The translations under genes were made by a program, and so were the position numbers. Shown here one piece after another: positions 3,305 to 56,649 of a stretch of DNA of 64,000 nt (position 1 is the first letter of the stretch; every line of letters starts with the position of its first letter). Origin of the DNA: Escherichia phage 348Ecol098PP; the sequence record OR062947.1; one strand, written 5' to 3'. The notes below the pieces were generated by a model that worked only from the letters and a program-made list of their open reading frames with translations, searched no databases and was not told the origin of the DNA.

Positions 3305-3393
3305 AATATCTCCTTAGTTACCTATTATTTATTACGCTTTATAAAATTAATGTTAGAATTAACTTCTCTTATACTGAATTGAAAGGAAAAATA

Positions 3394-3915
3394 ATGGCAC
3401 ACTTTAACGAATGTTCACAACTTATTTCTGGTGTTGATAAAGCAGAAGAAGCTTATTTTAATGCTCTGATTCACGAAGATAAAGACCCACTGCAGGTAAT
3501 GCTTGATATGCAGAAATCTTTACAGGTTCGTCTGGCAAATGACAAGCCTGAACATAACAAACATCCTGATGAATTGGCCACTGCTGGCGATGTTGTTGAT
3601 TGGCTGCGTAATCAGAAAGATTATATTGATGATGAATTCCGTGAACTGCTGACTTCACTTGGTGGTATGAGCAATGGTGAAAAAGCCGCCAGCAGTGTAT
3701 GGAAGCCGTGGAAGGCACAACATGCTGAATATCGAAATCGTCGTATCGATGAACTGTCTCCTGAAGACCAGCTTGAAATTAAATTCGAGATGATTGATAT
3801 CCTCCACTTTGTTCTGAATATGTTCCAAGGTCTGGGTCTTTCCGCTGAAGAAATCTTTAAACTTTACTACTTGAAAAACCAACACAACTTTGAACGTCAG
3901 GATAATGGTTACTGA
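3394..3915 (+). CDS. 56: dCTP pyrophosphatase (dCTPase/dUTPase) gp56
   Basis: ATG at 3394 (track start 3379 is TTG); MAHFNEC...DPLQVMLDMQ...FRELLTSLG...SPEDQLEIKFE..FHFVLNMF matches remembered T4 gp56. Confidence 0.85.
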   Translation: MAHFNECSQLISGVDKAEEAYFNALIHEDKDPLQVMLDMQKSLQVRLANDKPEHNKHPDELATAGDVVDWLRNQKDYIDDEFRELLTSLGGMSNGEKAASSVWKPWKAQHAEYRNRRIDELSPEDQLEIKFEMIDILHFVLNMFQGLGLSAEEIFKLYYLKNQHNFERQDNGY

Positions 3916-13757: not shown

Positions 13758-15575
13758 ATGATTAAAAATGAAATTAAGGTATTGTCAGATGTAGAACATA
13801 TTAAGAAACGTAGTGGTATGTATATTGGTTCTTCTGCTAAAGAAGCACATGAGCGTTTTTTGTTTGGTAAATATCAACAAGTTGAATATGTTCCTGGTCT
13901 GGTTAAATTAATCGATGAGATTATTGACAACTCGGTTGATGAAGCTATTCGTACATCATTTAAGTTTGCAAATAAAATTGATGTGCAAATTAAAAATAAT
14001 CAAGTTTCGGTGGAAGATAACGGACGTGGTATTCCTCAAGGTTTAGTTACCGACCAAACAGGTGAACAAATTCCTGGGCCTGTAGCAGCCTGGACTATTC
14101 CAAAGGCCGGTGGTAACTTTGGTGATGACTCTGAACGCAAGACTGGTGGTATGAACGGCGTCGGGAGTAGTTTAACTAATATCTTCTCTACGTTGTTTAC
14201 AGGCATCACGTCAGATGGCGAAAATGAAATCACTGTTAACTGTTCAAACGGAATGGAAAACAAATCATGGTCTTCTAAGAAATCTAAAGGTAAAGGCACT
14301 AAAGTAATCTTCACTCCTGATTTCACTTCATTTGAAGAGCATAATTTATCTCAAATTTATTTAGATATTACTTTAGACCGACTTCAAACATTGGCAGTCG
14401 TTTATCCTGATATCAAGTTCACATTTAATGGTAAAAAGGTTGATGGTAATTTTAAACGATTTGCTAAACAATTTGGTGAAGATAACATCATTCAAGAAAA
14501 TGATAAAGTCTCTATAGCATTCACAACATCACCAGATGGCTTCCGTCATTTAACTTATGTGAATAACATCCATACTAAAAATGGTGGCCATCATGTTGAA
14601 TGTGTAATGGATGATATCTGCGAACATCTTTTGCCCGGTATTAAAAAGAAATATAAGGGTATTGAAGTCACTAAAGCTCGTGTTAAAGAATGCCTCACAA
14701 TGTTGATGTTTATTAGAGACATGAGCAACATGCGTTTTGATTCTCAGACTAAAGAACGTTTAACGTCAACGTATGGTGATATTCGTAATCATATCCAATT
14801 AGATGCTAAGAAAATTGCTCAGGCACTTCTTAAAAACGAAGCCTTGATTATGCCTATTGTTGAAGCCGCATTAGCTCGTAAATTGGCGGCAGAAAAGGCT
14901 GCAGAAACTAAAGCAGCTAAAAAGGCAACTAAAGCTAAGGTTCATAAACATATTAAAGCTAACCAATGTGGTAAAGATGCAGATACGACATTGTTCTTAA
15001 CAGAAGGTGATTCTGCAATTGGTTATCTCATTGATGTTCGTGACCGTGAACTACACGGCGGATTCCCATTACGTGGTAAGGTGATGAATAGCTGGGGTAT
15101 GTCATATGCTGATATGATGAAGAACAAAGAGCTCTTTGATATCTGTGCTATCACGGGTCTTATTCTTGGTGAAAAGGCAGAGAATACGAACTATCGTAAT
15201 ATTGCAATTATGACCGATGCCGATCATGACGGTCTTGGAAGTATCTATCCGGCTTTGCTTGCTTTCTTTAGTAATTGGCCTGAATTGTTTGAACAAGGAC
15301 GTATTCGCTTTGTTAAAACACCTGTAATTATTGCACAAATTGGCAAAGCTCAAAAATGGTTTTATACTGTAGCTGAGTATGAAGAAGTTAAAGATACACT
15401 GCCTAAGCATAGTATTCGATACATCAAGGGATTAGGCTCCCTTGAAAAGTCAGAATATCGTGAAATGATTCAGAACCCTGTGTACGACGTAGTTAAACTT
15501 CCTGAAAATTGGAAAGAACTCTTTGAAATGTTGATGGGTGATGATTCAGAACTTCGTAAAGAATGGATGTCCTAA
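13758..15575 (+). CDS. 39: DNA topoisomerase II large subunit (GyrB-like), fused gp39/gp60
   Basis: 605 aa; GHKL ATPase motifs (IDEIIDNSVDEA, EDNGRGIP) and Toprim region; the length implies the T4 gene 60 part is fused with no bypass element. Confidence 0.9.
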   Translation: MIKNEIKVLSDVEHIKKRSGMYIGSSAKEAHERFLFGKYQQVEYVPGLVKLIDEIIDNSVDEAIRTSFKFANKIDVQIKNNQVSVEDNGRGIPQGLVTDQTGEQIPGPVAAWTIPKAGGNFGDDSERKTGGMNGVGSSLTNIFSTLFTGITSDGENEITVNCSNGMENKSWSSKKSKGKGTKVIFTPDFTSFEEHNLSQIYLDITLDRLQTLAVVYPDIKFTFNGKKVDGNFKRFAKQFGEDNIIQENDKVSIAFTTSPDGFRHLTYVNNIHTKNGGHHVECVMDDICEHLLPGIKKKYKGIEVTKARVKECLTMLMFIRDMSNMRFDSQTKERLTSTYGDIRNHIQLDAKKIAQALLKNEALIMPIVEAALARKLAAEKAAETKAAKKATKAKVHKHIKANQCGKDADTTLFLTEGDSAIGYLIDVRDRELHGGFPLRGKVMNSWGMSYADMMKNKELFDICAITGLILGEKAENTNYRNIAIMTDADHDGLGSIYPALLAFFSNWPELFEQGRIRFVKTPVIIAQIGKAQKWFYTVAEYEEVKDTLPKHSIRYIKGLGSLEKSEYREMIQNPVYDVVKLPENWKELFEMLMGDDSELRKEWMS

Positions 15576-15597
15576 GCTCCTTCGGGAGCTTCATTTT
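15575..15597 (+). terminator. rho-independent terminator
   Basis: agctccttcgggagct hairpin followed by tcatttt. Confidence 0.65.
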
Positions 15598-15617
15598 AAT
15601 TTTAATAAGGCTTAATT

Positions 15618-16718
15618 ATGAAAGTTATGTTTATCCCATCTCGTGCAGTCCCATTTAACCCAGAACGTGTACAAGGTGGTCTTGAAGCAGTACATTTAAA
15701 TGTGTTGAAATATCTTGTGTCCATCGGTGCTGATATTGATTATATCGGCTTTGATAATGACACATTTGGTGATTGGAAGGTTAATCATCATCCTGTTGGT
15801 CATCTGACTAAATTCAGTCTAGGTATGAGTTATACTATGGCTCGTAAGATTGTTGAACTGGCCGGCATCCATGAATACGATTTTGTTGTTACTATGGAAC
15901 CGACTAAACTAACCGTTCAGGCAATTAAAGACGCAGGTCTCTCTAAAGTTCATAAGAATTTTATGGCAACACCATTTGAACCTGTATCTCGTGGCATTGT
16001 TCAAATTTGGGACCAGACTATTCAAATTCATAAGAATGGCGGTAAGAGTTATGCTCCTACTAAAGCCTTCCGTGAATTTGAACGCAAATATTGTTATATG
16101 ACTTCAGGTCTGACTGACAAAATCGATTATGATTATTGGCGAGCAAATCCGTTGTTTGAAGCCGAAGATTATCCGGTTATTTGTTTGAATGAGAAACCTG
16201 AAGTTCTTCCGGCGACGGATCTGATTATTAGTGCACAACGTTATGACACTAAAATGCGTCGTACTGATGTTGCTCTTGAAGCGATTAAAGCACTAGGCGA
16301 AAATGGTGCAGGATACTGTCCAAGCAAATGGGCGCCACCAGCTAAATATCCTGTTATTATCGATGCTCCACACAGTGAAATCATGGAACGTCTTAAAACA
16401 GCTAAAGCACTTATTAATACGTGTCCTGACACAGGTACGGTAGAGAATAGTTCTATTGAAGCCATCTCTAAAGGTGTCCCTGTAATCCAGTTAGTTTTTA
16501 AGGATTATCCTCATGCGACATTCGAATACGACCCAGATACTGTGCGTGTAGAAATTGATTCCTCTACTCCTAAGAAAGAAGTAGTTGCGCTTTACACAAA
16601 AGCTGTATTAGAATTCACTGACACATACGAAGCTCGAGTTAAACGTGCTGAAGCAGTATGGAAGAAGTATAACCGAGATGCAGTTGTTGCGATGTGGGAT
16701 AAAATCTTCACAGCGTAA
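15618..16718 (+). CDS. putative GT-B fold glycosyltransferase (candidate DNA hydroxymethylcytosine sugar transferase)
   Basis: 366 aa; C-terminal ENSSIEAISKGVPVI resembles the E...EA(M/I)xxGxPV(I/V) donor-binding motif of GT4-like glycosyltransferases; occupies the gene 60 / mobA slot between 39 and rIIA.1. Confidence 0.45.
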   Translation: MKVMFIPSRAVPFNPERVQGGLEAVHLNVLKYLVSIGADIDYIGFDNDTFGDWKVNHHPVGHLTKFSLGMSYTMARKIVELAGIHEYDFVVTMEPTKLTVQAIKDAGLSKVHKNFMATPFEPVSRGIVQIWDQTIQIHKNGGKSYAPTKAFREFERKYCYMTSGLTDKIDYDYWRANPLFEAEDYPVICLNEKPEVLPATDLIISAQRYDTKMRRTDVALEAIKALGENGAGYCPSKWAPPAKYPVIIDAPHSEIMERLKTAKALINTCPDTGTVENSSIEAISKGVPVIQLVFKDYPHATFEYDPDTVRVEIDSSTPKKEVVALYTKAVLEFTDTYEARVKRAEAVWKKYNRDAVVAMWDKIFTA

Positions 16719-16727
16719 ATCCTGAAT

Positions 16728-16790
16728 AGCCTGAGGCACTATTACACATAAGATGATAGATTATATGGTCTTTAGTAATAGTGCCCTAGG
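16728..16790 (+). promoter_or_regulatory. long inverted repeat enclosing an AT-rich -10-like region upstream of the rIIA.1-like ORF
   Basis: aggcactattac ... gtaatagtgcc arms of about 11 bp separated by about 30 nt containing tagattata. Confidence 0.35.
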
Positions 16791-16810
16791 AATCTACTGA
16801 AGAGAATATT

Positions 16811-17011
16811 ATGAGAACATATAACGTGGACTTGGAACTTTTTGATAAAGCGGTGCTCCGGGAATTCCGGCTTATCCAAAGATTTTTTGATATCGAATCA
16901 GCAGAGTCCTTTAAAGAACGCTTTAAAGAAATTCGATATAAAATACAAACCGATACAGCTACTAAAGAAGAACTTCTCGAAGTAGCAGAAATTTTTAAAC
17001 GTAACTTGTGA
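16811..17011 (+). CDS. rIIA.1-like small protein
   Basis: 66 aa; ATG at 16811 with gaagag SD; directly upstream of rIIA. Confidence 0.45.
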   Translation: MRTYNVDLELFDKAVLREFRLIQRFFDIESAESFKERFKEIRYKIQTDTATKEELLEVAEIFKRNL

Positions 17012-17023
17012 TGAGAGAAAAAT

Positions 17024-19237
17024 ATGATTATTGAAACGGCTAAAGAAACGATTATTGGTTCAGGCGGTAAGAGCACAGCATTCACTATTCAAGGCAATAG
17101 CAAAGTTTATAAGATTTTGTCTAATGACCTTTATACAAACAAAGAATTGGCTTGTGTACGTGAATTAATCACAAACTGTATCGATGGACAAATTCTTAAC
17201 GGTTGCACTGATAAGTTTATTGTTCAGGCTCCAGGTCGTTTAGACCCACGTTTTGTAGTTCGAGACTTTGGTCCTGGTATGAGTGATTTCACCATTCGAG
17301 GTAATGACGAAGAGCCAGGAATCTATAACTCATATTTTGCTTCAACTAAAACATCGAGTAATGATTTCATTGGTGGATTCGGACTCGGCTCTAAAGCTCC
17401 ACTAGCATATACCGATACGTTTAACCTTACGTCTTATCACAACGGTGAAGTTCGTGGTTACGTAATCTACCAAGATGACACAGGTCCACAAATTAAGCCA
17501 ACCTTTGTAGATAAGATGGGTCCTGATGACCGTACGGGTGTAGAAGTAGTTGTACCGGTTAACCCAGAAGATTTTGAAAAGTTCGCATCTGAAATTGCAT
17601 ATGTTATGCGTCCTCTAGGTGATATTGCAGAAGTTCGCGGTGTTAAAGATATTAAATACTTTCCTGAATTTGACGATGTATATTTGGCCAAGGAAGCTCC
17701 ATGGGGTGAACGTGGTAATATCATGGCCGTTTATGGTGGTATTGTATATCCAATCGGAAGTGTTATTAAAGAACAAACATGGATGATGACACGATGCACT
17801 ACAGCTTATATTAAATTCCCAATGGGTGAACTAGATGTTGCTCCGTCTCGCGAAGCATTGTCATTTGATAAACGTACAGTAGCAAATATCCATAAACGCG
17901 TTGCAGAAATCGATGCTAAATTGTTCGCTGAAGATTCTAAGAAATGGATTGATTGTAAATACCCACGACATGTGTTCCGCGAAATTGATTCTCTTGGCTA
18001 TACCGCTCGTAAATACATGGAAAAGGCCGGGTCTAATATTGAATCACTGAAATACTCTAAAGAACAACTAACTTATTCTGAGTTGTACAAACGTTTTAAA
18101 ATGGGACCTGAGTGGTGTAATCTTGGTGTCGTATACGATATCGTTGAATCCCCTCGTCTTCGTCGTATTCGTGAAAGTGGTAGCTCATCATCAACCATTT
18201 CAATTAACAGCCTGATTGGCATTAACATTAAAAACGTTGAAATTGTTATTGACGATGTTAAGGGACGCGTTCCATTAATGCGAGCTCTTAATTCAATTGA
18301 AATGTCTAAAGACGAGGTTAAATTATCCGGTAAAGTTCCACGCGGTTTTGGTAAAAGCGTACTATTCGTTGACCCTACAGACGAAGATGCAATGAAACTT
18401 CTGGAACGCCTTAAAGTTATCTTTGATGGCGACAACATTAACATATACAAGACTTCAGAGCTTTTACAAATCGTTAAGCCATGGATTGAAGTCAGGAAAC
18501 GGACTAATGAGCCTCGTCCTAAATCCCCGAGTGCTCATCGATTCTTTAAGAATGAAAACGATGTTTGGGTATCAGAAGACCTCTTTATTCCGGCAAGTGA
18601 AGCAGATGAAATCCAAGGTTATGCTATAGTTCGTAATCGTTCTAATGCTGAATGTCTTGACGCAGATAAAGGTTGGTTGAACTATGACTCCAATTTCTTG
18701 ACCCGTATTGCTGATTTGTCAGGTATTAAAGAGTTCACTGTAGTTCGTCCACAGATTGCTAAGAAAGTTCGTAAACTTGGTGAAGTAGAATGCTTGTTCG
18801 AAAAATCAATTAATGACTATATTACGCTAATTGATAAAGTGGATTATGATGAGTATGTATCACCAAGTCGTAGAGCACAGCCTTATTTGAATCATATTAC
18901 TCGTAACGAAGAGCTTAACTTCCTTAGTAAGTATTTTAGCTCTAAGAACAAAGAAATCAGTAAAGACTTTGCAAAACTCTCAACAGTAAATAATCGTTGG
19001 GGATGGAATCGATTCGCAGGTGCTACTAATACAGACCTGAATAAGAAGTTAGAATTGTGTGCTAAAATTTTCGATAAGCTTAAAGATAATGCTTACGATA
19101 ATGATGATAAAATGGTTATTGAATTCGAAACCAATTATCATATTGTGTCAGAATACATGGGACGACGTGGTACTCTTTCCAAAGAACAGGTCGCTCAAAT
19201 CGTTAAATTCGTGAAGGCCGTGGAAGCGGCCAAATAA
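17024..19237 (+). CDS. rIIA: rIIA protein
   Basis: 737 aa; N-terminal KAFTI...YKILS.DLYTNK...VRELITN...PGRLDPRFV.RDFGPGMSDF matches remembered T4 rIIA (HATPase-like). Confidence 0.9.
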   Translation: MIIETAKETIIGSGGKSTAFTIQGNSKVYKILSNDLYTNKELACVRELITNCIDGQILNGCTDKFIVQAPGRLDPRFVVRDFGPGMSDFTIRGNDEEPGIYNSYFASTKTSSNDFIGGFGLGSKAPLAYTDTFNLTSYHNGEVRGYVIYQDDTGPQIKPTFVDKMGPDDRTGVEVVVPVNPEDFEKFASEIAYVMRPLGDIAEVRGVKDIKYFPEFDDVYLAKEAPWGERGNIMAVYGGIVYPIGSVIKEQTWMMTRCTTAYIKFPMGELDVAPSREALSFDKRTVANIHKRVAEIDAKLFAEDSKKWIDCKYPRHVFREIDSLGYTARKYMEKAGSNIESLKYSKEQLTYSELYKRFKMGPEWCNLGVVYDIVESPRLRRIRESGSSSSTISINSLIGINIKNVEIVIDDVKGRVPLMRALNSIEMSKDEVKLSGKVPRGFGKSVLFVDPTDEDAMKLLERLKVIFDGDNINIYKTSELLQIVKPWIEVRKRTNEPRPKSPSAHRFFKNENDVWVSEDLFIPASEADEIQGYAIVRNRSNAECLDADKGWLNYDSNFLTRIADLSGIKEFTVVRPQIAKKVRKLGEVECLFEKSINDYITLIDKVDYDEYVSPSRRAQPYLNHITRNEELNFLSKYFSSKNKEISKDFAKLSTVNNRWGWNRFAGATNTDLNKKLELCAKIFDKLKDNAYDNDDKMVIEFETNYHIVSEYMGRRGTLSKEQVAQIVKFVKAVEAAK

Positions 19238-47184: not shown

Positions 47185-47238
47185 GACTTTTTATTATAAT
47201 TTACTCATGGATGAGTTAATAACTAAGTGAGAAATATA

Positions 47239-47914
47239 ATGAGTACAGTTTTTAACACACAACAAGTCGATGTTTTGAATGAACCGATGTTCTTTGGTTC
47301 TGGTCTTGGCCTTGCACGTTACGATATTCAACGACATAAAGTTTTTGAAGAGCTTATCGAAAAGCAGCTCTCGTTCTTTTGGCGTCCCGAGGAAGTAAAC
47401 TTGATGTTGGATTCGGCCCAGTTTAATAAGCTTCCACAGTTCCAACAGGACATCTTTACCAACAACCTTAAGTATCAATCATTATTAGATTCTATCCAAG
47501 GTAGAGCACCATCTGCGGTACTTATGTCATTGCTTTCAGACCCTTCATTAGATACATGGGTTGCTACATGGACTTTCAGTGAAACTATTCACTCTCGTTC
47601 ATATACTCATATTATGCGAAATCTTTATACAGATCCATCGAAGGTGTTTGATGAGATTGTATTAGATGAAGCTATTATGAAGCGTGCCGAATCTATCGGA
47701 CGATATTATGATGATGTTCTGGTTAAAGCTCGTTATTGGGAAAACGCTAAAGCTGATATCGAATACCAAAAAGAAATTAATGCAGACGAAGACGTTATTG
47801 AAGATGCTATTGAGCATGAGACATATTGGAAGCGTGAGCTAATGAAATCTCTTTACCTTTGCCTCCATGTAATCAACGCATTGGAAGCTATTCGTTTTTA
47901 TGTATCTTTTGCGT
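47239..47914 (+). CDS. nrdB: ribonucleotide reductase small subunit NrdB, exon 1
   Basis: ATG at 47239 (MSTVFNT...; track start 47227 is GTG); exon ends ...RFYVSFA plus the first base of the Cys codon. Confidence 0.85.
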
Positions 47915-48024
47915 AAAATGCGCCTTTAAACGGTAACGTTTATCGAAAACTCCTTTAATTGCTGGAAAGTCCTTTATAGGAAAACTAGCAGCCAAGGTTT
48001 TGCTTGCACCTTTAATTAGTATAA

Positions 48025-48032
48025 TATAAATA
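48025..48032 (+). promoter_or_regulatory. late promoter TATAAATA inside the intron upstream of the endonuclease ORF
   Basis: tataaata about 28 nt upstream of the endonuclease start. Confidence 0.45.
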
Positions 48033-48059
48033 TGATTATACTTTTAAGAGGATGCACAA

Positions 48060-48869
48060 TTGAACTATAGAAAAATTTGGATAGATGCTAACGGACCTAT
48101 ACCTAAAGATTCTGATGGAAGAACATACGAAATCCATCATAAAGACGGTAACCGTGAAAATAATGATTTAGATAATTTGATGTGCCTTTCTATACAGGAA
48201 CATTATGATATACATTTAGCTCAAAAAGATTACCAGGCTTGTCATGCTATAAAGCTTAGAATGAAATATTCTCCTGAAGAAATTTCTGAATTAGCTTCTA
48301 AAGCCGCAAAATCTAGAGAAATCCAGATTTTTAATATCCCTGAAGTACGAGCTAAAAATATTGCCTCTATTAAATCTAAGATAGAAAATGGTACATTTCA
48401 TCTTTTAGGTGGTGAAATACAACGTAAATCTAATTTAAATAGAGTTGCATTAGGTATACATAATTTTCAACAAGCTGAGCATGTTGCAAAAGTCAAAGAA
48501 CGTAATATTGCAGCTATAAAAGAAGGTACTCATGTATTTTGCGGTGGTAAAATGCAGTCAGAAACTCAATCAAAACGGGTAAATGACGGTTCACATCATT
48601 TCTTATCAGAAGACCATAAGAAAAGAACATCAGCAAAAACATTAGAAATGGTTAAGAACGGGACCCATCCTGCACAAAAAGAAATCACATGTGATTTCTG
48701 CGGTCACATTGGTAAAGGTCCTGGATTTTATCTAAAACATAATGACAGATGTAAATTAAATCCAAATAGAATTCAATTGAATTGTCCATATTGTGATAAG
48801 AAAGATTTATCACCATCAACATATAAACGATGGCACGGCGACAATTGCAAAGCAAGGTTCAACGACTAG
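48060..48869 (+). CDS. I-TevIII: intron-encoded HNH homing endonuclease (I-TevIII-like, full length)
   Basis: 269 aa; HNH motif EIHHKDGNRENNDLDNLMCLSIQEHYDIH; C-terminal Zn-finger-like CDFCGH...CPYCDKK; apparent TTG start at 48060 after aagagga SD (no in-frame ATG upstream). Confidence 0.7.
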   Translation: MNYRKIWIDANGPIPKDSDGRTYEIHHKDGNRENNDLDNLMCLSIQEHYDIHLAQKDYQACHAIKLRMKYSPEEISELASKAAKSREIQIFNIPEVRAKNIASIKSKIENGTFHLLGGEIQRKSNLNRVALGIHNFQQAEHVAKVKERNIAAIKEGTHVFCGGKMQSETQSKRVNDGSHHFLSEDHKKRTSAKTLEMVKNGTHPAQKEITCDFCGHIGKGPGFYLKHNDRCKLNPNRIQLNCPYCDKKDLSPSTYKRWHGDNCKARFND

Positions 48870-49005
48870 TCTTCGGACGTAGGGTCAAGCGACTCGAAAT
48901 GGGGAGAATCCCTCTGGGATTGTGATATAGTCTGGTCTGCATAGTAATATGTAGCAGTTCATAAGAGAACGGGTTGAGAATTAGCGAGCTCAATCGAACA
49001 TAACG

Positions 49006-49508
49006 GTACCTTTAACTTCCATAAGAACATGGAAATCATGGAAGGTAATGCCAAGATTATGAAGTTCATTGCTCGTGATGAACAGCTCCACCTCAAGGGC
49101 ACTCAATATATTATTCGTGCTTTACAAGATGGCGAAGACGGTGATGAATGGGTCAAAATTGCTCAAGAGTGTGAACAAGAAGCAGTTGATATTTTCATGG
49201 AAGTTAACGCTCAAGAAAAAGAATGGGCTGAACACTTGTTTAAAGATGGTGCTCTTCCAGGTCTAAATGTTAAAATCCTAAGTGAATTTGTGGATTATCT
49301 TACCGTGTCTCGTATGCGTAGTTGTGGTCTGCCATGTCCTCTTAAAGACGTATCAACTCGTCATCCTATTCCATGGATTCGTGAGTATTTGAACTCTGAT
49401 TTGGTTCAAGCAGCTCCTCAGGAAGTTGAAATCAGTTCTTATCTTGTCGCACAAATTGATAATGATGTAGACCAAAATGTAATCAATTCATACAAAAAAT
49501 ATTTCTAA
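49006..49508 (+). CDS. nrdB: ribonucleotide reductase small subunit NrdB, exon 2
   Basis: (C)TFNFHKNMEIMEGNAKIMKFIARDEQLHLKGTQYII... in frame with exon 1 after intron removal. Confidence 0.85.
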
Positions 49509-49534: not shown

Positions 49535-49945
49535 ATGAAAGATATTGCCGCCGAATATTCCTTTATTAAATATACAGAATTGGAGCTATTAGAAGATGCA
49601 ACAATTAAAACAGTTGATGTCCCTAATAAGAAAAATGTCATATACGCTATTGCTATAGATGACGAACTTGTGTATATTGGTAAAACCAAGAATTTAAAGA
49701 AACGCATTAACTATTATCGAACAGCCATAAATCGAAAAGACCAGACTTCAGATTCAAGAAAATCACTTATGATTTTGGATGCCTTAATGCAAGGCAAAAA
49801 GGTTGAATTCTGGGCCCGCCAATGTTTTGACCTTTCAGTCACCAACGAACTTGGTTCAATGACCATCGCAACAATGGACCTTGAAGAACCGCTTTTTATC
49901 AAAAAGTTCAACCCGCCTTGGAATATCCAACATAAGAAAAAGTAG
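49535..49945 (+). CDS. denA: endonuclease II DenA
   Basis: 136 aa; MK.IA.EYSFIKYTELEL...NVIYAIAI.DELVYIGKTKNL.KRINYYRTAINRKD.TSDS...EEPLFIK.FNPPWNIQHKKK matches remembered T4 DenA. Confidence 0.8.
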   Translation: MKDIAAEYSFIKYTELELLEDATIKTVDVPNKKNVIYAIAIDDELVYIGKTKNLKKRINYYRTAINRKDQTSDSRKSLMILDALMQGKKVEFWARQCFDLSVTNELGSMTIATMDLEEPLFIKKFNPPWNIQHKKK

Positions 49946-49992: not shown

Positions 49993-51126
<1,134 letters not shown>

Positions 51127-51188
51127 TGGTTTACAAACACCAAGGAAGGTGTTACTATGGCTTTTATCAACAACACGAGGAGAAAATT

Positions 51189-51689
51189 ATGAATATGCAA
51201 TTGATTACTAACGATATGGTCGTAACCGCTTTTGGAGACACAACTGACGGAATCCGGGTCTTTAAGAAAGGACGTCCAGTTGGTTATCTTACGGACCTAC
51301 GTGTTACACTAGCGAAAAATGCTAAAAAGAAGTTAAAGCAAAAGGAATATTCAACACGTTACACCGAAGAGAAACGTGAAGCGATGCCGGAAGCAGTTAA
51401 TGCCATGGTAGAATTTCTTCAAAACAATTTGACTAAATATGACGCTAATGTGTTCATTAATATTAGTCAACCAAACGTACATATCGCAGGTATAAAATTC
51501 TACATTATTTGCGACCCTCTTACCGACAAATTCAACCGTCTCGGAATCTCAAGTCCATATCATACAGCAGAAGAGTTGTGTGTATTGTTTGAATCGTACA
51601 AAATCCAGTGTGATGGTTTGAAAACCGTTCTTATCAATGGATTGTCCCGAGATGAAATCATTGAGATTATTAAAACATGCTTAAAGTAA
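51189..51689 (+). CDS. alc: Alc (transcription termination on cytosine-containing DNA)
   Basis: ATG at 51189 with cgaggag SD; 166 aa; position between 63 and the spanins as in T4. Confidence 0.65.
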   Translation: MNMQLITNDMVVTAFGDTTDGIRVFKKGRPVGYLTDLRVTLAKNAKKKLKQKEYSTRYTEEKREAMPEAVNAMVEFLQNNLTKYDANVFINISQPNVHIAGIKFYIICDPLTDKFNRLGISSPYHTAEELCVLFESYKIQCDGLKTVLINGLSRDEIIEIIKTCLK

Positions 51690-55075: not shown

Positions 55076-56068
55076 ATGTTACCTGTCGTCAGAAAACTTA
55101 TTTCTCCAAAAGAACTGGCTGAGATTATTCCTTTGTCGGAAGCTTACGCATCACAAGTGGCTTCTCATCGTGAACAAGTTAATTCGATTATGAACGGTGA
55201 AGACCCACGCAAACTTATTGTTGTAGGTCCTTGTTCAATTCATGACCCTATTGCTGCTGTTGAATACGGCAAACGTCTGGCTGAACTTCAAACTCGTCTT
55301 CCTAATGTTCTGTTAGTGATGCGCGTTTATTTTGAAAAGCCTCGAACTACCGTAGGTTGGAAAGGTCTTGTAAATGATCCATATCTTGACGGAAGTTTTG
55401 ATATGAACCACGGTCTTATAGTTGCACGAACATTGTGTCGTAAACTTCTACGTATGGGACTTCCATTAGCAACTGAAGTATTAGACCCATTCACGATTAA
55501 GTATCTTTCTGGTATTTTCTCATGGGTTGCTATTGGCGCCCGTACGACTGAAAGTCAGACACATCGTGAAATTGCTTCAGGTCTACCGATGTGCGTAGGC
55601 TTCAAGAACGCAACCAGTGGTTCTATTAAAGTAGCTACAGACGCGATGTATAGTGCCGCCTGGCCTCATCGGTATATGGGTATGGACGTCGATGGTACTG
55701 TAGGCATTGTTGAAGCTGAAGGTAATCAGAATACGCATATCATATTGCGTGGCGGGACCAACGGCCCGAACTATCATTCTTCTGATATTCAAGAAGCTTC
55801 TAACAAAGCAAGTGCAGTAGGTCTGAATCATTATGTAATGGTTGACTGTAGCCATGCAAACGCTGCTGGGCATTATAGCAATCAAATTGGTATTGGTAAA
55901 AATTTAGCAGCTAATGATTTGGTCAAAGGAATTATGATAGAATCATTCCTACATGAAGGAAATCAAAAAATTTCTGATAATATGTCCTATGGCGTTTCCA
56001 TTACCGATGCGTGCATCAGTTGGGAACAAACTAAAGAGCTGTTAACTTATATTAATAAGGTTCAATAA
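55076..56068 (+). CDS. 3-deoxy-D-arabino-heptulosonate-7-phosphate (DAHP) synthase, AroG/AroF-like class I
   Basis: 330 aa; VVGPCSIHDP, LLVMRVYFEKPRTTVGWKGLVNDP, WVAIGARTTESQTHREIASGL, VGFKN, HIILRGG, SITDACI align by eye with E. coli AroG. Confidence 0.8.
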   Translation: MLPVVRKLISPKELAEIIPLSEAYASQVASHREQVNSIMNGEDPRKLIVVGPCSIHDPIAAVEYGKRLAELQTRLPNVLLVMRVYFEKPRTTVGWKGLVNDPYLDGSFDMNHGLIVARTLCRKLLRMGLPLATEVLDPFTIKYLSGIFSWVAIGARTTESQTHREIASGLPMCVGFKNATSGSIKVATDAMYSAAWPHRYMGMDVDGTVGIVEAEGNQNTHIILRGGTNGPNYHSSDIQEASNKASAVGLNHYVMVDCSHANAAGHYSNQIGIGKNLAANDLVKGIMIESFLHEGNQKISDNMSYGVSITDACISWEQTKELLTYINKVQ

Positions 56069-56649
56069 TGAAAGCTAGCACATATCTTCAAATTGCTTAT
56101 TTGATTTCTCAAGAATCAAAATGTTGTTCATGGAAAGTTGGTGCCGTCATTGAAAAAGATGGACGCATTATTTCTACAGGTTATAATGGCTCTCCTTCAG
56201 GTGGTACAAACTGTTGCGAACATGCGTCCGAAAACGGCTGGTTGAAGAATAAACCAAGCCCGGTCATCGTTGCTGGGCATAAAGAAGGCACTACAGCATT
56301 TGGACGGGCAGATAATTTTGTTTTGGCTAAAGAACATCGGGCTGCTCATAGTGCATGGTCTGCTAATAACGAAATCCATGCAGAATTGAATGCAATTTTG
56401 TTCGCAGCTCGTAAAGGTAATTCTATTGAAGGTGCTACGTTATATACTACGCTTTCTCCGTGTCCTGATTGCACTAAAGCTATCACACAATCAGGCATTA
56501 AAAAGGTCGTATATGCAGAATTATATGACCGGTCTCCTGAAAATTGGGCAGACATTCTAAAACAAGCTGGTATTGAAGTAATTCAGTACTCTCGTAATAA
56601 TCTTCGTTCTCTGAATTGGGAACAAATCCGAAACTTTTGTGGTGAATAA
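56068..56649 (+). CDS. cd: dCMP deaminase
   Basis: 193 aa; ...LQIAYL.SQESKCCSWKVGAVIEK.GRIISTGYNGSP...HAELNAILFAAR.G.SIEGAT.Y.TLSPCPDC.KAI.QSGIKK matches remembered T4 Cd. Confidence 0.88.
   Translation: MKASTYLQIAYLISQESKCCSWKVGAVIEKDGRIISTGYNGSPSGGTNCCEHASENGWLKNKPSPVIVAGHKEGTTAFGRADNFVLAKEHRAAHSAWSANNEIHAELNAILFAARKGNSIEGATLYTTLSPCPDCTKAITQSGIKKVVYAELYDRSPENWADILKQAGIEVIQYSRNNLRSLNWEQIRNFCGE

Follow-up and report, generated by a model that had tools for sequence, protein, structure and literature searches.

A GT-B glycosyltransferase gene between gene 39 and rIIA of a Mosigvirus as the probable second arabinosyltransferase of DNA modification

Phages T2 and T6 can extend a sugar that is already present on a modified cytosine, as their beta-1,6-glucosyl-alpha-glucose transferase makes gentiobiosyl-hydroxymethylcytosine (gentiobiosyl-hmC). 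The T2 enzyme (ba-gt) is mentioned by Thomas et al. 2018, who detected arabinose in the DNA of RB69 and nominated ORF003c of that phage as an arabinosyltransferase based on HMM, HHpred and Phyre2 evidence (PMC6024577). Later work showed that the modified base in RB69 and in Mosigvirus NP is 5-hydroxycytosine (5hoC) and not hmC, with the sugar ether-linked directly to C5 (PMC13326640, PMC13390438). According to Lee et al. 2026, 5hoC is made as a mononucleotide by the flavin-dependent ThyA homologue RB69 gp48, and the RB69 nucleoside was identified by NMR as beta-D-Araf-(1,3)-alpha-D-Araf-O5-2'-deoxycytidine (PMC13326640). The same authors proposed that RB69 gp46:47 is the first transferase and put forward, as a hypothesis, that gp3 (the product of ORF003c) is 'beta-arabinosyltransferase 2' (PMC13326640). 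The sole enzymes shown there to be active are gp76 and gp77 of Acinetobacter phage DLP3, which together with UDP-Araf convert RB69 DNA in vitro from two to three arabinoses; each of them is inactive alone and they are active only in combination (PMC13326640). In an independent study on Mosigvirus NP, mono- and di-arabinosylated dC were present at a ratio of 1:4. Arabinosylated 5hoC is a recently clarified hypermodification. It protects T4-like phages against restriction enzymes and a DNA glycosylase as well as some CRISPR systems, and the length of the glycan alters which defences see the DNA.

The window analysed here is a stretch of 64,000 nucleotides of Escherichia phage 348Ecol098PP (OR062947.1), and it is Mosigvirus DNA, that is, DNA of an RB69-like phage. 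An earlier note on this DNA had pointed out a 366-amino-acid ORF as a putative sugar transferase for DNA, and its position, strand and ATG start are borne out (Table 1). The ORF lies between an unsplit gene 39 and rIIA.1/rIIA. In T4, the interval between 39 and rIIA holds 60, 60.1 and mobA, so the name "gene 60/mobA slot" that the note had used describes the position correctly. In the window, 39 and 60 form one fused gene, because residues 452-605 of the topoisomerase subunit match the gp60-type family; the RB69 annotation likewise gives 39/60 as one gene. The length of gene 39 differs by one codon from that of RB69. A Shine-Dalgarno sequence precedes the transferase gene, and the hairpin between the two genes, which overlaps the gene 39 stop codon, could be a terminator-like or mRNA-stabilising element, judging from its sequence. 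No convincing promoter was found directly upstream of the ORF, where sigma-70-like matches were not commoner than in shuffled sequence.

Table 1. Positions of the features discussed in the text, numbered along the 64,000-nucleotide window
Feature	Position	Strand	Remark
dCTPase 56	3379-3915		within window
Topoisomerase II large subunit (gene 39)	13758..15575	+	unsplit, 605 aa; upstream neighbour of transferase ORF
Hairpin AAGCTCC-TTCG-GGAGCTT, then T-rich tract	15574..15591	+	7-bp stem, GC-rich, TTCG loop
Shine-Dalgarno AAGG	15607..15610	+	7 nt before transferase ATG; direct sequence reading
Putative transferase ORF	15618..16718	+	ATG start, 366 aa
N-terminal Rossmann-like domain, ~residues 1-190	15618..16190	+	from model secondary structure; boundary approximate
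Gly-rich loop G20-G21	15675-15680	+	N-terminal domain
R208...R214 (RYDTKMR)	16239..16259	+	both Arg invariant in 14-sequence alignment
C-terminal motif ENSSIEAISKGVPVI, residues 276-290	16443..16487	+	peptide quoted in the earlier note
rIIA.1	16811-17011	+	downstream neighbour of transferase ORF
rIIA	17024-19237	+	downstream, after rIIA.1
Ribonucleotide reductase small subunit gene (nrdB), apparently split	47227-49508	+	N-terminal part 47227-47916, C-terminal part 49029-49508
HNH endonuclease ORF	48060-48869		between the nrdB halves
DenA	49535-49945		within window
Alc	51126-51689		within window
DAHP synthase I family gene	55076-56068	+	330 aa; directly upstream of dCMP deaminase
dCMP deaminase	56068-56649		within window

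The DNA of the ORF matches 163 phage records, nearly all of them RB69-type Escherichia or Shigella phages, and the protein is 100% identical to that of Mosigvirus mar005P1 records. Compared with RB69 ORF003c (gp3, RB69p003, NP_861693.1), which likewise lies between gene 39 and rIIA.1, the ORF is of equal length and is 98.3% identical in nucleotides and 99.5% in amino acids, with E16D and T327I as the only two substitutions. Going by this comparison, no functional difference from ORF003c would be expected. The transferase gene is under strong purifying selection, since 18 of the 19 nucleotide differences fall in third codon positions and only 2 of the 19 change an amino acid, while the neighbouring rIIA is only about 90% identical. 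Divergence from RB69 is mosaic over positions 13758-19237, at 98.3% DNA identity for the transferase gene, 98.5% for rIIA.1 and 90.3% for rIIA (92.7% in amino acids). The glycosyltransferase of phage HY126 is about 98% identical to the ORF protein over the full length, with seven substitutions. Its crystal structures without ligand (9IQZ) and with UDP (9IR0) were released on 2025-07-16, and both entries are matched by the ORF protein at E 2.8e-249 (phmmer). A match to PHROG 8302 was also obtained (E 9e-223), a family labelled 'unknown function'. Identity, position and membership of PHROG 8302 all place the ORF with RB69 gp3 and the HY126 enzyme, and on this comparison it is the ortholog of ORF003c, an enzyme already described and, as an ortholog, crystallised. 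It is not a new gene: its identity, fold and likely role have been published and a structure has been deposited, so a known enzyme was rediscovered. The earlier note had mentioned RB69 as a T4 relative that arabinosylates its cytosine with an enzyme other than Agt or Bgt; this holds, except that the ORF is not a separate candidate next to that enzyme but its ortholog.

What can be corrected is the annotation, as most database records call the gene a 'hypothetical protein' or mislabel it. Public labels of the ortholog also include 'ATP-binding protein', 'DNA alpha-glucosyltransferase' and 'GDP-mannose-dependent alpha-(1-2)-phosphatidylinositol mannosyltransferase', and an arabinosyltransferase role appears in none of them. 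The chemistry needs correction as well, from hmC to 5hoC. The note had reasoned from an hmC toolkit in the window, and dCTPase 56, dCMP deaminase, Alc and DenA are indeed all present, but the hmC chemistry is outdated for these phages, in which the base is 5-hydroxycytosine (PMC13326640, PMC13390438). Which of the two bases is made is set by the gene 42-like ThyA homologue, a gene that the window does not contain.

Sequence profiles gave little help in placing the protein. No Pfam or NCBIfam match was obtained even at E<=10, no core member of the family reaches the cut-off of a GT4-type profile (Glycos_transf_1 or Glyco_transf_4), and only a borderline outgroup (P0015) passes, for Glyco_transf_4. 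The sole match of a 14-member family profile in the PDB was 9iqz, which is near-identical to the ORF protein, so sequence alone does not tie the family to other glycosyltransferases. The note had judged the protein unlike the T4 alpha- and beta-glucosyltransferases, and rightly so, as the best BLASTP E values were 7.1 (a-gt) and 3.0 (b-gt). The fold was taken from structure prediction. An AF2 run with 6 sequences gave a pLDDT of 61 and was set aside; the 14-sequence run used here gave a pLDDT of 92 and a pTM of 0.88. Foldseek aligned this model to the HY126 structures with a TM of 0.98 (9iqz) and 0.95 (9ir0), followed by BH4 glucosyltransferase, LmbT, BshA, PimA, MshA and WaaG. The protein has two beta/alpha/beta domains of Rossmann-like type, and its active site lies in the cleft that separates them. 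On the model it is a GT-B glycosyltransferase, as the note had supposed, and it resembles bacterial enzymes of the GT4 type more closely than Agt or Bgt. The T4 enzymes, which act on the hydroxymethyl group of the base with UDP-glucose, show no detectable sequence similarity to the ORF, and in the structural ranking some 30 to 60 bacterial enzymes come before them. UDP binding by the ORF protein is probable by proxy, as the 98%-identical HY126 protein was deposited with UDP and the model fits that structure.

The usual donor-binding set, consisting of G20, R208, R214 and E281-A-x-x-x-G-x-P, is invariant or nearly so in the family. D88 in the N-terminal domain, the presumed acceptor side, is nearly invariant as well. 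R208 and R214 lie at the position that binds the donor diphosphate in GT4 enzymes, and from the alignment they may have the same role here. Thomas et al. aligned Gly-20, Arg-207 and Glu-281 with the UDP-contacting residues of T4 a-gt (PMC6024577). The claim that the C-terminus carries a GT4-like donor motif is correct for one half. E281, which is invariant, with its A-x-x-x-G-x-P corresponds to the second-Glu half of the GT4 E-x7-E signature, but the first Glu is missing: Gly273 stands 8 positions before E281, and what the family conserves in this region is T-G-T-V-E276. The canonical E-x7-E is kept in the borderline outgroups P0015 and P0016. In this the family differs from the bacterial retaining enzymes of GT4 type, such as sucrose-phosphate synthase (6KIH), BshA, PimA, MshA and WaaG, and it would also differ from them in its acceptor, which in our reading is a sugar on DNA.

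The family is tiny: a search of 5.8 billion proteins gave only 5 clusters, and one of 1.84 billion gave 12 representatives. IMG/VR adds 7 loci, all from Mosigvirus-like or Acinetobacter T4-like phages, without new diversity or context. With the ORF protein as the query (tblastn at E<=1e-3, used for all distributions and copy counts), matches to the family were obtained in 211 phage records. One copy per genome is present in RB69-type coliphages and Shigella phages. The family is also present in 55 Acinetobacter phage records, and in all 15 of these among the matches listed it occurs in two places. One Tegunavirus record carries the family and two Yersinia phage records match the transferase gene by DNA search, which suggests transfer of the gene between genera of T4-like phages.

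DLP3 gp76/gp77, Konradin gp071/gp072, and proteins of Acj61 and Acj9 belong to the same family as the ORF, with full-length identities of 41-43%. The two Konradin paralogs (42% and 41% identical to the ORF protein) adjoin genes for a nucleotide kinase, the first transferase, a ThyA-like protein, a phosphatase, an NTP-transferase/kinase and an arabinose-5-phosphate isomerase, in the same arrangement as DLP3 gp76-gp83. The Acinetobacter counterparts are thus two paralogs per genome that sit within the arabinosylation cluster and go with a third arabinose, whereas Mosigviruses have one gene that is displaced to the 39-rIIA slot.

The gp46:47-type transferase has a much wider range than the ORF family, with 356 records that include Serratia phage LC53, Shewanella phage Thanatos-2, JS98-type coliphages, the same Acinetobacter phages, and Klebsiella, Enterobacter, Proteus and Yersinia phages. 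LC53 and Thanatos-2 do not contain the ORF family by this search, and their clusters do hold the gp46:47-type first transferase next to a ThyA-like gene. TH2_068 of Thanatos-2 (378 aa), which lies at the position of the Acinetobacter transferases, was considered as a hidden homolog and rejected (hhalign probability 0.1%; Pfam Peptidase_U32). LC53 and Thanatos DNA are reported to carry one arabinose (bioRxiv 10.64898/2025.12.19.695335; PMC13326640), DNA of RB69, Bas46/47 and NP carries two, and DLP3 DNA carries three (PMC13326640; PMC13390438; PMC12923530). Zero, one or two family copies therefore go with, and as a genomic rule predict, one, two or three arabinoses, a correlation that is based on a small number of phages with characterised DNA chemistry and in which the two-copy state is read from the DLP3 relatives DLP1, DLP2 and Konradin.

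Both this relation and the location of the Acinetobacter homologs within the cluster favour a chain-extending role over a role at the base. We consider it likely that the ORF encodes a UDP-sugar-dependent GT-B enzyme of Mosigvirus DNA arabinosylation which adds the second arabinose. The phage would first replace dC by 5-hydroxy-dC, and a smaller, different transferase of the RB69 gp46:47 type, encoded outside the window, would put an alpha-D-arabinofuranose on the 5-hydroxyl. The ORF protein would then transfer a second, beta-linked D-arabinofuranose from UDP-arabinofuranose to O3 of the first sugar. The product would be beta-D-Araf-(1,3)-alpha-D-Araf-O5-cytosine, the form found in virions of RB69-type phages, and this glycan, being bulkier, may shield the DNA against host nucleases. 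Of these steps, we infer the acceptor, the linkage formed and the action on polymerised DNA. The idea in the earlier note of a DNA-modifying transferase with an unusual sugar was thus right in kind, but it had the base wrong (5hoC, not hmC) and probably also the step, as the enzyme would add the second sugar and not the first. By function, the proposed role resembles that of the T2/T6 enzyme described above, which places a hexose on hydroxymethylcytosine, whereas the pathway of the ORF uses a furanose pentose on 5-hydroxycytosine.

Alternatively, the ORF protein could be the base-proximal transferase and place the first arabinose on the modified cytosine itself. ORF003c was initially put forward in this role in 2018, from the HMM, HHpred and Phyre2 evidence (PMC6024577), and the full-size GT-B fold is like that of T4 AGT and BGT, both of them enzymes that modify the base. 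We regard it as unlikely, because the single-arabinose phages LC53 and Thanatos-2 lack the family but have the gp46:47-type transferase, the number of family copies rises with the length of the glycan, and Lee et al. 2026 give the first step to gp46:47 (PMC13326640).

It is also conceivable, at low probability, that the ORF protein is a subunit or a partly non-catalytic partner in a complex with the first transferase or with another phage protein. The requirement of DLP3 gp76 and gp77 for each other would agree with this (PMC13326640), and entry 9iqz lists a chain H, so that crystal contains several copies. Mosigviruses, on the other hand, have only one family member, and the conservation of G20, R208, R214 and E281 together with UDP binding by the ortholog argues for a catalytically competent enzyme. 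Since neither DLP3 paralog is active alone, a model with a single enzyme adding the second arabinose may nevertheless be too simple.

Coming back to the ORF protein as the enzyme that adds the second arabinose, its stereochemistry deserves attention. The first sugar is alpha-linked and the second beta-linked, so that inversion has to occur in one of the two transfers, yet every close structural neighbour of the ORF protein is a retaining enzyme. As a tentative idea, which we hold to be possible but on the whole doubtful, the beta linkage might be formed by an inverting mechanism on a retaining GT4-type scaffold, with the remodelled E-x7-E (T-G-T-V-E276...E281) as part of the switch. The inverting reading would follow from UDP-alpha-D-Araf as the shared donor. 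The phage kinase/uridylyltransferase has structural matches to an aminoglycoside-phosphotransferase-type kinase and to MurU, and the related AmgK-MurU pathway yields alpha-1-phosphates.

The partner genes of the pathway lie outside the window, and the pathway context is drawn from near-identical genomes. No 5hodCMP synthase (gene 42-like ThyA), first transferase or UDP-arabinose genes were detected in the window (tblastn E>0.1), which by RB69 coordinates ends about 5 kb short of the arabinosylation cluster. These genes are present in near-identical genomes, for example in LR027386.1, which has both the transferase ORF and the first transferase, and the cluster was found at >=95% identity in 151 records. 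That the true target of the ORF protein is not DNA but, for instance, a glycan of the host envelope, a protein of the phage or some small molecule, and that its link with DNA arabinosylation is coincidental, is very improbable: its nearest structural neighbours do act on lipids, LPS, thiols and pterins and the Mosigvirus gene is about 21 kb away from the arabinosylation cluster, but the family is confined to phages with such a cluster, lies inside it in Acinetobacter phages, and has Acinetobacter members that are active on DNA in vitro (PMC13326640).

Within the cluster, the RB69 annotation breaks both the first transferase (ORF046/047) and the kinase/NTP-transferase (ORF052/053) into separate ORFs (L002 598-1498 and 4095-5781, RB69 reference). 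Other Mosigvirus genomes gave a single uninterrupted tblastn match across the first transferase, and Lee et al. 2026 ascribe the splits of the RB69 ORFs to sequencing errors (PMC13326640).

Two other genes in the window may be mentioned. A gene of the DAHP synthase I family (Pfam PF00793, E 1e-75) occurs in 145 phage records, most of them Mosigvirus, and is unannotated in the cd region of RB69. KDO8P synthases, which are related to DAHP synthase, use arabinose-5-phosphate. This type of phage makes arabinose-5-phosphate for arabinosylation, and a tie to the DAHP synthase gene is only speculative. The ribonucleotide reductase small subunit gene appears to be split into two parts by the HNH endonuclease ORF (Table 1), while nrdB of RB69 is a single gene of 390 aa; the split looks like an intron or the insertion of a homing endonuclease.
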